DNA of 37,839 bases, taken from IMG/VR virus record IMGVR_UViG_3300045988_092680. One strand, written 5' to 3'. This document shows positions 18,550-22,724 of the stretch, piece after piece. This DNA is from a virus. The stretch's first letter is position 1, and the number at the start of each line of letters is the position of its first letter. The notes below the pieces were generated by a model. The model was given only the letters and a program-made list of their open reading frames with translations, was not told the origin of the DNA and did not search any database. The position numbers and the translations under genes are program-made.

Positions 18550-20310
18550 ATGGCACAAATAATTAGAACTCGTAGAGATATAAAAACGAACTGGGAAACT
18601 GAAAACCCAGTTCTAGCTCTAGGAGAACAAGGCTACGAAACTGATACAGGAAAATTAAAATTTGGCGACGGTAATACTAGCTGGAATAACCTACCATATT
18701 TTAGAGGAGCTTTAACAGAAGAATTAGAAGAAAAATTAGATTCTGTACCAACTCCTAGTAATATAGTAGTAATAGAAAATATATCAAGCTTGTTTAAGTC
18801 TGTTTCATATAACAGTGCTAACGGAGTTTTGACTTTTACACAATATAATGATACAATAGTTACTGTCGATTTGCCACTAGAGTTAATAGTTAGTAGCGGA
18901 CATTATGATAGCGATACTAAGAGTATTATACTCGTTCTCGCTAATCAAGAAACTATCACTATTCCTGTTAGTGATCTAGTTAATGAGTATTATGCTGATA
19001 ACACTACGTTAGAATTAAAACAAGTCAACGGAAAGTTGACTTTTAATGTAAAAGACGGTGTTTTTGTAAAAGCTCAAACTGGTAAAGGATTATCGACTAA
19101 TGATTATTCAACTTTGGAAAAAAATAAGTTAGCTGGAATAGCATCAGGAGCACAAGTTAATAAGGTTGAAAAAATACTTATTAACGGTGTGGAACAATCT
19201 ATAACAGATAAAACAGTAAATCTCGAAGTGAAAACAACCTCAAATAAGATATACGGTATAAAAAGATCGTTATCTTCTAATACATCTTCAGCTTGGGAAA
19301 GAACAGACGATTCAGTTGGATTGGTAGCTAATGCAACTAAAGACGGTAGTTCTGTTGTTAATAATTTTGATAGTATCTACCCTTGGTCTGATATTATTAC
19401 ATACAATTATGATACTCAAGCTAAAGCAATAACCGCTTATTATGGAGAACCTACTTTTAAGTTTGACGGTTCTAATGGCGAAGTATTAACTAGAATACCA
19501 GAATTTTATTATAAGAGATATGTTTCTAACAACGTAGAATATATTCTCATTTCGAGAGAAAAACACGACGGATTCATTAAAAGCGAACAATTTAGTGTTG
19601 GACGTTATACTTATTCAGGTTCAGCCTCAAGAGTGTATAGCCGAAGTGGTTATGAGCCATTTAGAAATTATAATATAACCAATGCTAGAGCTTATGCTAG
19701 GGCTTTAGGAGACGGATTCGGACAACTAGATTGGCATTATTTAATTATTCAGATGTTATATTTGGTAGAGTATGCTAATTATAATTGTCAATCTATGTTA
19801 GGACAAGGTCGTGTTTCAAGTAGTACACCTAACAACAGTGGCGGTTGTGATACCCTAGGTATGAAATCTGGTTGCTTGGGTAATGACGGAACATATTCTG
19901 TAATATATAGAGGTATTGAGGATCCTTACGGAAATATTTGGCAATTTATAGACGGTATAAATGTAAAAGATCACGTTCCGTATGTATGTTATGATTCTAG
20001 TAAGTACGCTGTTGACACATTTGACGGAGCTTATCACGTATTAAATTTCACAATGCCGTCAGCTAATGGCTATGCTTCTAAATTGGGTTATGATTCAAAT
20101 AATCCCCTTATGTCTTTAACAACTGAAGCTTCTGGTAGTTCTACTACTAATATGTGTGATTATTACTATCAGAATGACGGGAATCGTATCGCTCTTGTCG
20201 GCGGTCGTTTTGATTATGGTAGTGCTGCTGGGTTGTGGTTTTGGACTTTTGACAATACTTCGTCTAATACTTATACTTCGTACGGTGCTCGACTTCTTAG
20301 AAACCAGTAA
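18550..20310 (+). CDS. Tail fibre / receptor-binding protein, DGR target (Mtd_N-like N-terminus, C-type-lectin/FGE-like variable tip)
   Basis: N-terminus RRDIKTNWETENPVLALGEQGYETDTGKLKFGDGNTSWNNLPYF; C-terminus ALVGGRFDYGSAAGLWFWTFDNTSSNTYTSYGARLLRNQ*. Confidence 0.85.
   Translation: MAQIIRTRRDIKTNWETENPVLALGEQGYETDTGKLKFGDGNTSWNNLPYFRGALTEELEEKLDSVPTPSNIVVIENISSLFKSVSYNSANGVLTFTQYNDTIVTVDLPLELIVSSGHYDSDTKSIILVLANQETITIPVSDLVNEYYADNTTLELKQVNGKLTFNVKDGVFVKAQTGKGLSTNDYSTLEKNKLAGIASGAQVNKVEKILINGVEQSITDKTVNLEVKTTSNKIYGIKRSLSSNTSSAWERTDDSVGLVANATKDGSSVVNNFDSIYPWSDIITYNYDTQAKAITAYYGEPTFKFDGSNGEVLTRIPEFYYKRYVSNNVEYILISREKHDGFIKSEQFSVGRYTYSGSASRVYSRSGYEPFRNYNITNARAYARALGDGFGQLDWHYLIIQMLYLVEYANYNCQSMLGQGRVSSSTPNNSGGCDTLGMKSGCLGNDGTYSVIYRGIEDPYGNIWQFIDGINVKDHVPYVCYDSSKYAVDTFDGAYHVLNFTMPSANGYASKLGYDSNNPLMSLTTEASGSSTTNMCDYYYQNDGNRIALVGGRFDYGSAAGLWFWTFDNTSSNTYTSYGARLLRNQ
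20191..20298 (+). repeat. DGR variable region (VR0), in frame at the 3' end of the fibre gene
   Basis: Bounded by GCTCTTGTCGGCGGT and GGTGCTCGACTTCTT, blocks shared with four downstream cassettes; only 2 AAY codons. Confidence 0.8.
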
Positions 20311-20373
20311 GTGGGGGTTTGGGGGCGACCAGCCTCCCATAATAAAACTTCTTTTTTACCGACGAAAGTCGGT
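20311..20373 (+). promoter_or_regulatory. G-rich element plus two hairpins downstream of VR0 (IMH/target-recognition-like, or the fibre-gene terminator)
   Basis: gtgggggtttgggggcgaccagcctccca (GC-rich stem 20320-20339) and accgac-GAAA-gtcggt (20358-20373). Confidence 0.4.
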
Positions 20374-20432
20374 CGAGCTAAATTTATTTTTTGGGATTTG
20401 ATGTGGCGAGTACCGTTCGACTTTTAGCTTTC

Positions 20433-20543
20433 GCTCTTGTCGGCGGTGGTTATACTACCGACGCTGTACGTTGCGGGTTGTGGTGTTGGACTTTTGACAA
20501 TACTTCGTCTAATACATATACTTCGTACGGTGCTCGACTTCTT
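20433..20543 (+). repeat. Cassette C1: orphan VR-like copy (111 nt, one extra codon; VR-type 3' end CTTCTT)
   Basis: 3' 69 nt differ from VR0 at only 2 positions; 2 AAY codons; no credible gene context. Confidence 0.75.
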
Positions 20544-20596
20544 ATTTTTTCGGGGACTTGGTGTGGTTTGCACTTTCCTTTTGTTTGTGTTTCTTT

Positions 20597-20704
20597 GCTC
20601 TTGTCGGCGGTGCTTGGTCTAATGGTACGGAAGCTGGGTTGTGGTATTGGAACGTGAATGAAGCTTCGTCTAATGCGTGGACGAATGTCGGTGCTCGACT
20701 ACTT
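20597..20704 (+). repeat. Cassette C2: TR-like copy (5 AAY codons; 3' end CTACTT)
   Basis: Same conserved 5', central and 3' blocks; encodes ALVGGAWSNGTEAGLWYWNVNEASSNAWTNVGARLL in a frame with no start context. Confidence 0.7.
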
Positions 20705-20766
20705 ATATCATTTTATAAATATAGGGATTTGATGTGTTTGAGTGCGTGATTTGTGGCGTTTTTATT

Positions 20767-20874
20767 GCTCTTGTCGGCGGTCGTTTTGATAATGGTAGTA
20801 ATGCTGGGTTGTGGTATTGGAATTACAACAATGATTCGTCGTTGGCTAACACCACTGTCGGTGCTCGACCTCTT
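20767..20874 (+). repeat. Cassette C3: best template-repeat candidate for the 5' two-thirds of VR0 (6 AAY codons; 3' end CCTCTT)
   Basis: Cassette positions 1-66 versus VR0: 8 mismatches, 7 at C3 adenines. Confidence 0.7.
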
Positions 20875-20922
20875 ATTTTGGGATTTGGTGTGTTTTGTAC
20901 CGGCGTTTTCAGTGTTCGGCAG

Positions 20923-21030
20923 GCTCTTGTCGGCGGTAATTGGGGCAATACTACTCAAGCTGGGTTGTGGTATTGGAACTTCAATTGGTCTGGGACTGAT
21001 TACAACACTAATGTCGGTGCTCGACTACTT
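20923..21030 (+). repeat. Cassette C4: TR by position (~120 nt upstream of the RT start; 6 AAY codons; 3' end CTACTT)
   Basis: Same conserved blocks; followed by a ~120-nt spacer with hairpin ttgcc-cctt-ggcaa (21062-21075), then the RT. Confidence 0.65.
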
Positions 21031-21153
21031 ATATTTATAAATTACTTACACATCATTTTCCTTGCCCCTTGGCAAAAATTAGTCGCTCTGGGTTGGCTTA
21101 GTAGGTTAATTCTCGAAAAGTCGGCAGGCAAATATAAGAATATGGAGCCAGAA

Positions 21154-22218
21154 ATGAAAAGAAAAGGAAATATTTATAATGAAATATTAGAACTCAACAA
21201 TATTGAATCAGCAATATTTAAAGCTTCTGTTGGTAAGACGCACCGTAAGAGTGTTGAAAAAATACTAGACGCCCCTACGTATTACGCTATGCAAGTGCAA
21301 AAAATGTTATCAGATAGAAGCTATATTCCTAGTCCGTATATTGAAATGAAAATAAGAGACGGAGCTAGCAAAAAAGAAAGAATTGTATTTAAACCTAGGT
21401 TTTACCCAGATCAAATAATACACTGGGCTTTAATGAATAAAGTAGAACCACTTTTTAAAAGAGGTATGTACGAATTTTGCTGTGCTTCTATTAAAGGGCG
21501 TGGAATACAACGAGGAATGAATTATGTTAAAAGAATCCTAGTTAATGATAGAAAACATACTAAATATTGTTTAAAATTAGATATTAAAAAGTTTTACCCC
21601 AGTATAGATAAAGAAATACTAAAAAAGAAGTTTAGAAAAATAATCAAAGATAAAGATACATTATATTTAATGGATCTAATAGTAGATAGTTCTACAGAGG
21701 GTGTTCCAATAGGTAATTTTACTTCACAATGGTTTGCTAATTACTATTTACAAGATTTGGATCACTATATAAAAGAAGAATTAAAGGTTAAATACTATAT
21801 AAGATATATGGACGATATGGTATTATTCTCTAATAATAAAAAAGAACTACGTAAGTGCAAATATGCTATTGACGAGTTCTTAACACGAGAACATTTAAGG
21901 ATTAAGGAAAATTGGCAATTATTTAAAACTGATAGCCGTCCTATTGACTTTCTTGGTTATCGCTTTTACAGAGGTTATACTACATTACGAAGAAGTAATT
22001 TTTTAAGAATCAAAAGAAGAATCAAGAAAATATCAAAGAAAGAAGAACTTAATTTTAAAGACGCTTGTGCGATAATGAGTTATAATGGTTGGATTATACA
22101 TTCTGATTCATATAACTACACTCAAAAATATTTAAAGCCTTATGTTGATTTTAAAAAGGTTAAGGAGGTAATTAAAAATGAAAACAGAAAGCACAATAAA
22201 ACCGGAAATAAAATTTAG
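21154..22218 (+). CDS. DGR-type reverse transcriptase
   Basis: MKRKGNIYNEI... start with GGAG 6 nt upstream; motifs KPRFYPDQIIHWAL, LKLDIKKFYPSI, VPIGNFTSQWFANYYL, YIRYMDDMVLF, IDFLGYRF. The ORF is open from 20734, but that upstream part is cassette DNA. Confidence 0.9.
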   Translation: MKRKGNIYNEILELNNIESAIFKASVGKTHRKSVEKILDAPTYYAMQVQKMLSDRSYIPSPYIEMKIRDGASKKERIVFKPRFYPDQIIHWALMNKVEPLFKRGMYEFCCASIKGRGIQRGMNYVKRILVNDRKHTKYCLKLDIKKFYPSIDKEILKKKFRKIIKDKDTLYLMDLIVDSSTEGVPIGNFTSQWFANYYLQDLDHYIKEELKVKYYIRYMDDMVLFSNNKKELRKCKYAIDEFLTREHLRIKENWQLFKTDSRPIDFLGYRFYRGYTTLRRSNFLRIKRRIKKISKKEELNFKDACAIMSYNGWIIHSDSYNYTQKYLKPYVDFKKVKEVIKNENRKHNKTGNKI

Positions 22219-22669
22219 TATAGAGAACATTAAAGACAACACTTGTGAGGTTGTCTTTTTTGATAATATTTCCGAGGAAACAAAGGAAGAACAAACTGTA
22301 TATGTATATTATACTTATAGAATGAAAACAGCTTATAGACCTAATTTAGATATTATTATAGAACAAAACTACAATAAATGGTTAGAAGCTGTAAAAAATT
22401 ATGATTATAATTTAAAAGCTGAAGAAATAAGAAATAAAAGAAATCAACTTTTAGCTGACAGTGATAAAAATATGGTATTAGATAGAATAAATTTTGAAAT
22501 ACCTAAAGAAATAACTTTGACTAATATAGTAATTGTTATAAAAGAACTGTTTAACACTATAAGTACAATAAAAAACGGAGCTTGGGCTGTTTATAGACAA
22601 GAACTTCGAGATATTACAAAACAAAATGGATTTCCTTATGAAGTGGAATTTCCAAAAAAACCTGAATAA
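22178..22669 (+). CDS. Tail fibre assembly / chaperone-like protein (Caudo_TAP-like C-terminus)
   Basis: RNKRNQLLADSDKNMVLDR...WAVYRQELRDITKQNGFPYEVEFPKKP; AAGGAGG SD; overlaps the RT 3' end by 41 nt. Confidence 0.6.
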   Translation: MKTESTIKPEIKFSIENIKDNTCEVVFFDNISEETKEEQTVYVYYTYRMKTAYRPNLDIIIEQNYNKWLEAVKNYDYNLKAEEIRNKRNQLLADSDKNMVLDRINFEIPKEITLTNIVIVIKELFNTISTIKNGAWAVYRQELRDITKQNGFPYEVEFPKKPE

Positions 22670-22693
22670 AAAGAGACGCTGGTCTCTTTTTAT
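22668..22693 (+). terminator. Rho-independent terminator
   Basis: aaagagac-gctg-gtctcttt followed by a T-run. Confidence 0.65.
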
Positions 22694-22724
22694 TATAAAT
22701 AATTTTTTCAAAGGAGGAATTAAA

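Follow-up and report, generated by a model that had tools for sequence, protein, structure and literature searches.

Introduction

Diversity-generating retroelements (DGRs) are treated as one-template machines, in which the adenine positions of the template set the sequence space that can be reached. Their canonical form, with the order mtd/avd/TR/brt in Bordetella phage BPP-1, has one template repeat (TR) for each expressed variable repeat (VR), an IGxxxSQ/YMDD-type reverse transcriptase (RT) and TR/VR differences confined to adenines (PMC5758913, PMC8144416). Here we describe a DGR in a 37,839-nucleotide stretch of viral DNA (IMG/VR record IMGVR_UViG_3300045988_092680; "the window" throughout), in which four TR cassettes (C1 to C4), and up to eight in relatives, serve one VR. 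We consider it very probable that the locus is a four-template array, any cassette of which can be written into the single VR with adenine errors, and that the present VR (VR0) records writings from both C3 and C1.

The element is a DGR by its RT type, its adenine-only TR/VR differences, the position of its VR, a mark specific to the VR and a stop duplex. With the canonical system it shares the RT type and the adenine signature. In both, the VR occupies the final ~40 codons of the gene for an Mtd-like receptor-binding protein, hairpins and a G/C-rich mark stand behind the VR and not behind the templates, and RNA upstream of the template pairs with RNA downstream of it, a stem-loop and adenosines coming next. 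The counterpart of this duplex in BPP-1 is the Stop of cis-primed reverse transcription (cPRT), an upstream/downstream duplex that adjoins the template:primer duplex and precedes a short stem-loop and adenosines. There, cDNA synthesis both requires the Stop and is terminated by it, and Stops averaging 13 bp have been predicted in 207 DGRs (bioRxiv 10.1101/2023.10.23.563531). Unlike the canonical element, the locus gives every template its own upstream duplex strand with one common downstream strand, its relatives and VR0 itself show that VRs can be two-template chimeras, and the arrays mix A-rich and A-poor cassettes. Unlike in BPP-1, no Avd gene was found beside the element.

Multiple TRs, each with its own VRs, are mentioned in PMC6642488, and several TRs in two crAss-like phages are noted in PMC12386605; large surveys describe no such multi-template architecture (PMC5758913, PMC8144416). 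The earlier multi-TR reports do have more than one TR-like repeat near one RT, but as counts or passing remarks, as pairings of each TR with its own VR, or as overlaps that were set aside. In the literature searched, which was incomplete, we found no account of tandem TR arrays that serve one VR with use of every position, nor of core-joined chimeric VRs, written A-poor cassettes or a common stop strand. Silent-cassette systems are known from Neisseria (pilE/pilS) and Borrelia (vlsE/vls), and in chicken immunoglobulin genes pseudo-V gene conversion goes together with hypermutation. These systems are like the present locus in having one expressed locus beside a donor array and mosaics joined in conserved stretches, and chicken B cells also in using combinatorial and mutational diversity together. 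They depend on RecA- or AID-initiated DNA recombination, whereas the adenine signature here points to an error-prone RT acting through RNA.

Composition of the expressed repeat

VR0 (109 nt; 20191–20299, this and all mapped features below being on the + strand) lies in frame at the 3′ end of the target gene, an open reading frame (ORF; 18550–20310) for a 586-residue tail or receptor-binding protein. It falls within the last 40 codons and ends 11 nt ahead of the end of the stop codon (20308–20310). The four cassettes follow, with 134 nt between the VR and C1. C1 (TR1; 20433–20544) is an A-poor, VR-like template with 19 adenines and two AAY codons, lengthened to 112 nt by a 3-nt insertion. The other three are A-rich: C2 (TR2; 20597–20705) has 20 adenines and five AAY codons, C3 (TR3; 20767–20875) has 21 and six, and C4 (TR4; 20923–21031), closest to the RT gene, has 24 and six. 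All five cassettes, VR0 included, have conserved stretches at the 5′ end (GCTCTTGTCGGCGGT), in a central core (GGGTTGTGGTnTTGGA) and at the 3′ end (GGTGCTCGAC).

An original prediction, made from the window alone, had read VR0 as a mosaic of an adenine-mutagenised C3 on the 5′ side and a near copy of C1 on the 3′ side, and its counts were reproduced on the codon alignment. Against C3, VR0 has eight mismatches at positions 1–66, seven of them on C3 adenines, and differs at 14 of the 27 positions from 67 to 93, three on adenines. Against C1, there are two differences over positions 40–108 (50, T/G; 81, T/A); at the first of these sites C2, C3 and C4 all carry A, where VR0 has T and C1 has G. The two-parent structure is firmly borne out: at the 36 sites that separate C1 from C3, VR0 agrees with C3 by 13:1 through position 50 and with C1 by 19:1 beyond it (Fisher p = 2e-7).

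The 5′ segment (20191–20240) fits C3 with 0 non-A mismatches and four of seven template adenines changed; over the same positions (1–50) C1, C2 and C4 leave 12, 8 and 7 non-A mismatches. The 3′ segment (20250–20299) fits C1, and positions 51–109 as a whole do so with 0 non-A mismatches and one of 14 adenines changed (ACA>ACT); C2, C3 and C4 leave 14, 13 and 16. Scored half by half against each cassette, as had been suggested, the adenine test thus leaves C3 and C1 with 0 non-A mismatches in their respective halves and every other candidate with 7–16. Between the segments lies a junction zone at VR0 positions 51–59 (20241–20249), at the 3′ edge of the core GGGTTGTGGTnTTGGA (20230–20245). Position 50 is compatible with C3 alone (A>T) and position 60 with C1 alone, and the optimal breakpoint falls in alignment columns 53–58. 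The breakpoint near position 66 that had first been proposed leaves one non-A mismatch, which is gone with a junction at 51–59.

As a C3–C1 chimera, VR0 is explained with 0 non-A and five A-site mismatches; the best single cassette leaves 13 non-A. Two chance controls give nothing comparable. The best two-segment chimeras of the window's four cassettes fit 43 foreign VRs with at least 10 non-A mismatches (median 18), and those from 43 foreign arrays fit VR0 with at least 10 (median 20). The window has no sixth cassette that could stand in for the mosaic: a cassette profile run on both strands of the 37.8-kb window finds exactly five copies. More than plain single-template retrohoming is involved, as had been anticipated, and a junction within the conserved core is required. 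Of the two processes originally proposed, the involvement of two templates and the mosaic stand, while a separate non-mutagenic step is not needed for VR0, where five of five differences are on template adenines.

A sigma-70 promoter-like site (TTGACA, 17 nt, TATACT; 11/12 matches) is present at 20249–20277 and at 20494–20522. It belongs to the C1-type sequence, so that both C1 and the portion of VR0 derived from C1 have a copy; in the VR of one near-identical phage (L001) it is abolished by adenine changes.

Template use in near-identical phages

Relatives were gathered from public contigs by an RT-protein search and a search for the VR-specific G-run motif, giving 263 loci (here numbered with an L). 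RT relatives numbered 389 in genome contigs and 565 in viral contigs, and the post-VR G-run pattern led to 87 metagenome loci. Five loci share the window's array (L001, L191, L225, L227 and L231), and their sequence 5′ of the VR is 97.9–100% identical to the window; L001 is a phage from another sample, 98.9% identical.

VR0 is the sole stretch strongly divergent from these phages, with 20–48 differences against 0–4 in the cassettes, and the six VRs, including that of the window, differ pairwise at 6–48 positions. The cassettes differ from those of the window at 0–1 positions in L001, L191 and L227 and at 0–4 per cassette in L231. Between the window and L001, differences are concentrated in the VR, and the cassettes differ by one base. 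C1 itself shows 0–1 difference in the five lineage members, though their VRs all differ.

Each of these VRs can be traced to one cassette. The L001 VR is the entire 112-nt C1, including the 3-nt insertion, with four A-site changes and one other, and the L191 VR is C1 with one non-A change and 0 of 20 adenines changed. The L231 VR derives from C2 with 14 A-site changes and one other, and those of L225 and L227 derive from C4 with 14 and 10 A-site changes, respectively, and 0 non-A. The comparison of VR alleles in related phages that the original prediction had called for therefore yields A-only derivatives of C1, C2 or C4. The same prediction had taken C1 for an orphan cassette, which is contradicted by the VRs of L001 and L191, both derived wholly from C1, that of L001 mostly via A-site changes. 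When the C1-derived changes of L001, L191 and the 3′ half of VR0 are pooled, five of seven are on C1 adenines, which make up ~18% of the bases (binomial p about 0.003). On these alleles C1 is a working template repeat. Since C1, C2 and C4 each serve as the sole VR template somewhere in the lineage and C3 templates the 5′ segment of VR0, all four cassettes can be regarded as template repeats.

The L225 array reads C1-C2-C4, the C3 unit and the C3-to-C4 spacer being cleanly deleted. Because it lacks exactly that unit, array length appears to shift by whole units. Between the C1–C3 templates of the window and their L231 orthologs, eight of nine base differences involve adenine on one side; this suggests that the templates are slowly adenine-mutagenised and incompletely shielded from homing.

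Arrays among relatives

Loci whose RT identity is ~70% or lower show the usual single VR with a single TR, the exception being L147 (RT 64%), with two cassettes after the VR. Cassette arrays go with RT identities of 74–99% and the post-VR motif GGGGGTTTGGGGGCGRYCAGCC. We found 59 distinct arrays with 0–8 TRs after the VR, 49 of them with at least two, some of these counts being from arrays that end at contig ends. Two arrays have no TR and eight have one; two and three TRs occur in five arrays each, four TRs in 13, five in one, six in ten, seven in 11 and eight in four.

Each VR of the 49 arrays with at least two TRs was fitted against its own cassettes. In 30 the VR derives from a single TR, with 0–3 non-A and up to 14 A-site differences, and the donor may stand at any array position. 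A preference for the RT-proximal cassette was considered and dropped, the last TR having been used in 6 of 30 cases against 6.7 expected under uniform use. Eight of the 49 VRs, that of the window and those of L004, L005, L087, L190, L199, L219 and L237, are clean two-TR chimeras, and L103, from a separate fit, is the ninth. The chimeras fit with 0–2 non-A mismatches, and all their junctions fall in columns 36–62, the conserved core. Since all nine join in the core, the mosaic of the window is one case of a recurrent outcome.

The array clade is widespread in gut metagenomes. L001, the nearest relative, lies in a metagenome-assembled genome (MAG) labeled Candidatus Melainabacteria, and further array relatives are in gut MAGs labeled Bacilli, Mycoplasma, Tenericutes or Clostridia, with record names that suggest human (Hadza), mouse and rabbit samples. 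As the MAG labels vary, the host of the phage clade is uncertain.

A-rich and A-poor cassettes

Arrays contain two types of cassette. The A-rich type has 20–27 adenines and 4–8 AAY codons, as in C2–C4; the A-poor, VR-like type, to which C1 belongs, has 11–19 adenines and 0–2 AAY codons. The two types differ in what becomes of their copies: 29–70% of template adenines are changed in VRs derived from A-rich donors, versus 0–20% for A-poor donors. Seven VRs from A-poor cassettes carry 12 changes where column-specific A-rich rates predict ~39, and on the same rates the C1-derived segment of VR0 has one change versus about four expected. The VRs of L184, L191 and L242 are near-exact A-poor copies, with none of their 15–20 template adenines changed against a column-matched expectation of about 4–6, and with 0, 1 and 2 non-A differences, respectively.

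These figures bear on the original claim that the 3′ part of VR0 needs copying without mutagenesis. The sole difference past the junction is at a C1 adenine and the A-poor class as a whole changes little, so that the claim does not hold for VR0 in particular; the scarcity of changes there reflects low mutation as a property of the template class. An unmutated A-poor copy probably already encodes a working tip, which an unmutated, Asn-rich copy of an A-rich cassette probably does not, and selection would for this reason retain different fractions of the two kinds of copy. A second reason, compatible with the first, is that homing often yields unmutated products even in BPP-1, where no more than 7 of 12 wild-type products showed adenine mutagenesis (PMC3240598).

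Some A-poor cassettes are themselves adenine-mutagenised copies. TR3 of L005 is an A-only derivative of TR1 of the same array, with one non-A and 11 A-site differences, and altogether 5–6 of 58 A-poor cassettes can be traced to A-rich parents, compared with 0 of 91 A-rich controls. The further traced cassettes are TR3 of L100/L145/L242, TR3 of L244, TR3 and TR4 of L258, and TR3 of L229, with parents in the same or related arrays. A-poor cassettes thus seem, at least sometimes, to be written by the element itself. For C1, no A-rich parent was found among the 91 A-rich cassettes in single or two-parent fits (best, 12 non-A), and it is plausible that C1, too, was once written from an A-containing template.

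Cassettes also differ at 19–41 positions between otherwise identical arrays (TR6 of L086/L219, TR3 of L017/L198, and TR3 and TR8 of L088/L223). Most of the cassettes next to them are unchanged, as are the adjoining spacers wherever these could be scored, which indicates that cassettes are replaced or rewritten in place.

RNA duplex and post-VR mark

A short 5′ motif precedes each cassette and would be the 5′ (upstream) partner in the closing ("stop") duplex. Its four copies are GGGATTTGATGTG in unit 1 (20393–20405), GGGGACTTGGTGTG in unit 2 (20552–20565), GGGATTTGATGTG again in unit 3 (20724–20736) and GGGATTTGGTGTG in unit 4 (20880–20892). The downstream strand of the 13-bp duplex is a single 3′ element, CACATCATTTTCC (21049–21061), which complements every 5′ motif. 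Directly behind it and ahead of the RT gene comes the Rfam RT-18 motif (21063–21138), consisting of a stem-loop, an A-run and a second stem. RT-18 (RF03021) is the sole Rfam match in the window, scoring 60.9 bits versus a gathering score of 41.3 over the full model length (1–84). The model covers only the part 3′ of the duplex; the duplex itself and the multiplied 5′ motif lie outside it.

In single-TR relatives the same elements flank one template. GGGATTTGrTGTG stands ~35 nt 5′ of the template, directly behind a TATAAT-like box, and CACATCAyTTTCC stands 10–35 nt 3′ of it, directly ahead of the RT-18 stem-loop; the two are complementary at 11 of 13 positions. The pairing is GATATG/CATATC in four loci and GGTATG/CATACC in one, and others have G:C for G:U. 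Among 22 distinct pairs, 99.2% of cells are paired and two pairs show compensatory changes, compared with 66% at most in register-shifted controls. This covariation comes from single-TR relatives only, the arrays being uninformative because their 3′ element is nearly invariant. In the arrays, each of about 250 units checked retains its own 5′ motif, and 54 of 54 arrays scored have one 3′ element; RT-18, too, occurs once per array.

Each unit comprises a 13-nt 5′ motif, a ~30-nt leader and a 109–112-nt cassette. We propose that template choice is a contest among the units for one downstream strand and one priming module: whichever unit has its own upstream strand in the duplex would be copied, and the duplex would bound the copy. 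We also considered docking of the 3′ end of cassette k beside RT-18 by the 5′ motif of the next unit (k+1), and set it aside for a stop strand supplied by the unit's own motif, because the upstream strand in BPP-1 belongs to the template that is copied.

No consistent internal promoters were found ahead of the units. Each cassette ends in the hairpin GTCG-GTGCT-CGAC and a T-rich tail (e.g., 20857–20869 and 21013–21025), scored as terminator-like, and the hairpin could be relevant to RNA folding or priming. Over all arrays, the AT-rich tail after a cassette is 1–21 nt long at internal positions (median about 9) and 14–31 nt after the last cassette. Some long internal tails hold a degenerate copy of the 3′ element (ACACAT), and the sequences suggest that arrays grow by duplication at the RT-proximal end.

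On the target side, VR0 alone is followed by a G-run and a GC-rich hairpin, GGGGGTTTGGGGGCGACCAGCCTCCC (20313–20338), which resembles the initiation of mutagenic homing (IMH) element. The region is predicted to fold as DNA, and the mark is kept as GGGGGTTTGGGGGCGRYCAGCC behind the VR in the listed array loci and is not present behind TRs. A second hairpin is predicted 3′ of the VR (ACCGAC-GAAA-GTCGGT, 20358–20373), again behind VR0 only, and its stem covaries in relatives (ATCGAC/GTCGAT, TCGCC/GGCGA). Its GAAA loop is compatible with the 5′-GRNA consensus of DGR target hairpin loops (PMC3240598). Taken together, the G/C-rich mark and the hairpins would give the VR a putative, IMH-like directionality of homing.

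Ahead of the first 5′ motif, at 20368–20392, GTCGGTCGAGCTAAATTTATTTTTT looks like a cassette 3′ end (GTCGGTGCTCGAC...) with an AT-rich tail and may be what remains of a cassette since lost. The stretch shares bases with the 3′ arm of the 20358–20373 hairpin, and L011 and L014 have similar sequences.

Origin of the mosaic

In the mechanism that we propose, any of C1–C4 would be reverse-transcribed with adenine errors and then written into the single VR of the receptor-binding protein gene. The first ~50 nt of VR0 would be a C3-templated copy with four adenine changes and the last ~59 nt a C1-templated copy with one, joined at the 10+5-nt core common to all cassettes. As to how the two came together, we lean, with modest confidence, toward two successive retrohoming events, the later one partial: a C3-derived VR would have been overwritten in part, from the 3′ end, by a C1-derived cDNA whose 5′ junction fell at the core. 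The IMH sets the 3′ boundary of homing in BPP-1, and the 5′ junction forms where cDNA and VR share at least 8 bp (PMC3240598, PMC5703328), 5′ target recognition being by homology alone (PMC5703328). Here a VR and a cDNA of different cassettes have only three such stretches in common, one at the 5′ end (15 nt), one in the core (10+5 nt) and one at the 3′ end. By the BPP-1 rule, a C1 cDNA could therefore take over a C3-type VR completely or just from the core to the 3′ end, and VR0 is precisely what the latter would leave.

A single copy-choice event is possible, though less probable than successive homing. The RT would start at the 3′ end of the C1 RNA and switch at the core GGGUUGUGGUnUUGGA to the C3 RNA, so that the whole VR is replaced at once. 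Retroviral and group II RTs do switch templates at short homologies, the cassettes would lie on one transcript with the donor near the acceptor, and all nine chimeras join in the only internal stretch common to all cassettes. The product is identical to that of two events, so that the sequence offers copy-choice no support of its own. Moreover, in seven of the nine chimeras the donor of the 5′ part lies downstream of the donor of the 3′ part in the array, which would demand a backward jump on the RNA and a stop after one cassette, and in BPP-1 the RNA around the template is described as keeping the RT complex in place on it (bioRxiv 10.1101/2023.10.23.563531). A related scheme, one long colinear cDNA with a loop-out, predicts a 5′ donor that lies upstream; we rejected it on the opposite order in the same seven of nine, a bias that is not significant.

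It is unlikely that the relationship runs in the reverse direction, with C1 an archived former VR that was written into the array by homing or gene conversion. C1 does look like a VR, having 19 adenines and two AAY codons against five to six AAY codons in C2–C4, and a G at position 50 where C2–C4 have A; 5–6 A-poor cassettes elsewhere are A-only derivatives of A-rich ones, with none among the 91 A-rich controls, and in-place cassette replacement is seen between near-identical arrays. Yet C1 is unchanged (0–1 difference) in five members with differing VRs and so predates those VRs, the polarity of the L001 differences runs from C1 to VR, and no A-rich parent of C1 was found. An archived origin is also compatible with templating by C1 now, and would complement the proposed mechanism more than replace it.

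We think it quite unlikely that the 3′ part of VR0 came from an inert, orphan C1, or has a duplication in common with it, by RT-independent recombination or gene conversion, the DGR having made the 5′ part only. What speaks for such an exchange is the closeness of the match (no more than two differences over 69 nt, although C1 has 14 adenines there), the nearly exact C1 copy in L191, with 0 of 20 adenines changed, the under-mutation of A-poor-derived VRs (12 versus 39 expected) and a distance of merely 134 nt. Against this, the L001 VR differs from C1 at four adenines and one other site, which is the polarity of templated mutagenesis; the sole VR0 difference past the junction is likewise at a C1 adenine; and C1 retains its 5′ motif and is as conserved as the other templates. 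RecA-type conversion brings no base-specific mutation, and the VR/donor differences are concentrated on adenines. Identity tracts of 10–19 nt, such as VR and cassettes share, are short for RecA-type exchange. Unmutated homing products are, moreover, frequent in BPP-1 (PMC3240598). Finally, an assembly consensus that merged C3-derived and C1-derived VR subpopulations is very improbable: the related loci were indeed assembled from metagenomes or as MAGs, a single population can carry varied DGR VRs and the junction is ambiguous over up to about 24 columns in some chimeras, but at the VR0 junction the two parental types have no more than 10+5 bases in common, well under usual assembly k-mers, the flanks are single-copy, and nine independent chimeras from different samples each fit with 0–2 non-A mismatches.

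Several observations weigh against a four-template array with two successive writings as the full account. The order of events cannot be read from the sequence, in which a one-event template switch leaves the same product. C3 is seen as a donor in VR0 alone, and all VR alleles are assembly consensus sequences. Eleven of the 49 fitted VRs are unexplained by the cassettes now present, with 3–27 non-A mismatches (L002, L010, L011, L013, L093, L162, L181, L192, L195, L229 and L244); lost or rewritten templates, truncated contigs or decayed elements are possible reasons. The sole priming module lies behind C4 and not beside the internal cassettes, and inspection by eye of the last tail for complementarity with cassette 3′ ends, a candidate primer:template duplex, gave nothing convincing. 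Lastly, the shortfall of changes in the seven VRs from A-poor cassettes, which we attribute to selection and to frequent unmutated homing, leaves room for a non-mutagenic route.

Other features of the locus

The RT gene (21142–22218) encodes a 358-residue protein that matches Pfam RVT_1 (E 7.7e-18) and contains GVPIGNFTSQ and YIRYMDD. IGxxxSQ is a hallmark of DGR-type RTs. NCBIfam, which offered no DGR-specific model for this RT, gave only sub-threshold matches to group II and retron RTs. Of the ORFs on either side of the target gene or the RT gene, none gave an Avd-like Pfam match. DGRs with a TR-RT or RT-TR core (type A) have been treated apart from the avd-containing type B (PMC5758913), and since an architecture lacking avd is thus described, the absence of Avd should not bar membership.

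Residues 5–43 of the target protein match Pfam Mtd_N (E 2.7e-12), the N-terminal domain of the Bordetella phage tropism determinant. DGR target genes encode ligand-binding proteins of the C-type lectin fold, which for this protein is no more than a candidate: a profile of the C-terminal domain gives a weak match in the PDB to 5vf4 (E 0.015), over a GNVWEW-like motif and the VR segment. The sole phmmer match of the target protein in the PDB is N-terminal, to a hyaluronoglucosaminidase, and a single-sequence AlphaFold model of the C-terminal 236 residues has a pLDDT of 31, too low for a fold search.

From its ORFs and Pfam matches, the window is a low-GC tailed-phage or prophage genome that encodes tail proteins, a CHAP endolysin and a serine recombinase. 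An ORF for 163 residues (22178–22669) overlaps the final 41 nt of the RT gene, and its C-terminus matches Pfam Phage_tail_APC, a tail assembly chaperone (E 1.7e-13); the retroelement sits within the tail module. A search of INPHARED with 18550–22700 returned only matches of 35–53 nt, inside RT genes of crAss-like phages, and no annotated relative.

Implications

We have not found described elsewhere a tandem template array that yields a two-template tip, and it is seemingly an undescribed way to widen host-recognition diversity. The AAY codons of C2–C4 occupy nine different codon positions. An array of alternative templates alters the fixed scaffold residues as well as the variable codon positions, and chimeras joined at the core multiply the combinations.

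With N upstream stop strands, one downstream strand and one priming module, such arrays offer a natural setting in which to test how the ribonucleoprotein of a DGR selects its template and sets the limits of the copy. They are also relevant to engineered DGR mutagenesis, where multi-template designs are sought. In genome annotation, VRs at such loci fail the adenine-only test against any single TR, and automated DGR callers will consequently mis-score or discard them.

We suggest, tentatively and as a less than even prospect, that the array may act as a cassette library with memory. A-rich cassettes would serve a broad search, and A-poor ones such as C1 would be mutagenised tips that the element itself had archived in the array, to be redeployed with few alterations or spliced to parts of others. 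If so, a single RT would let the phage change its host range by combination, by mutation and by recall.

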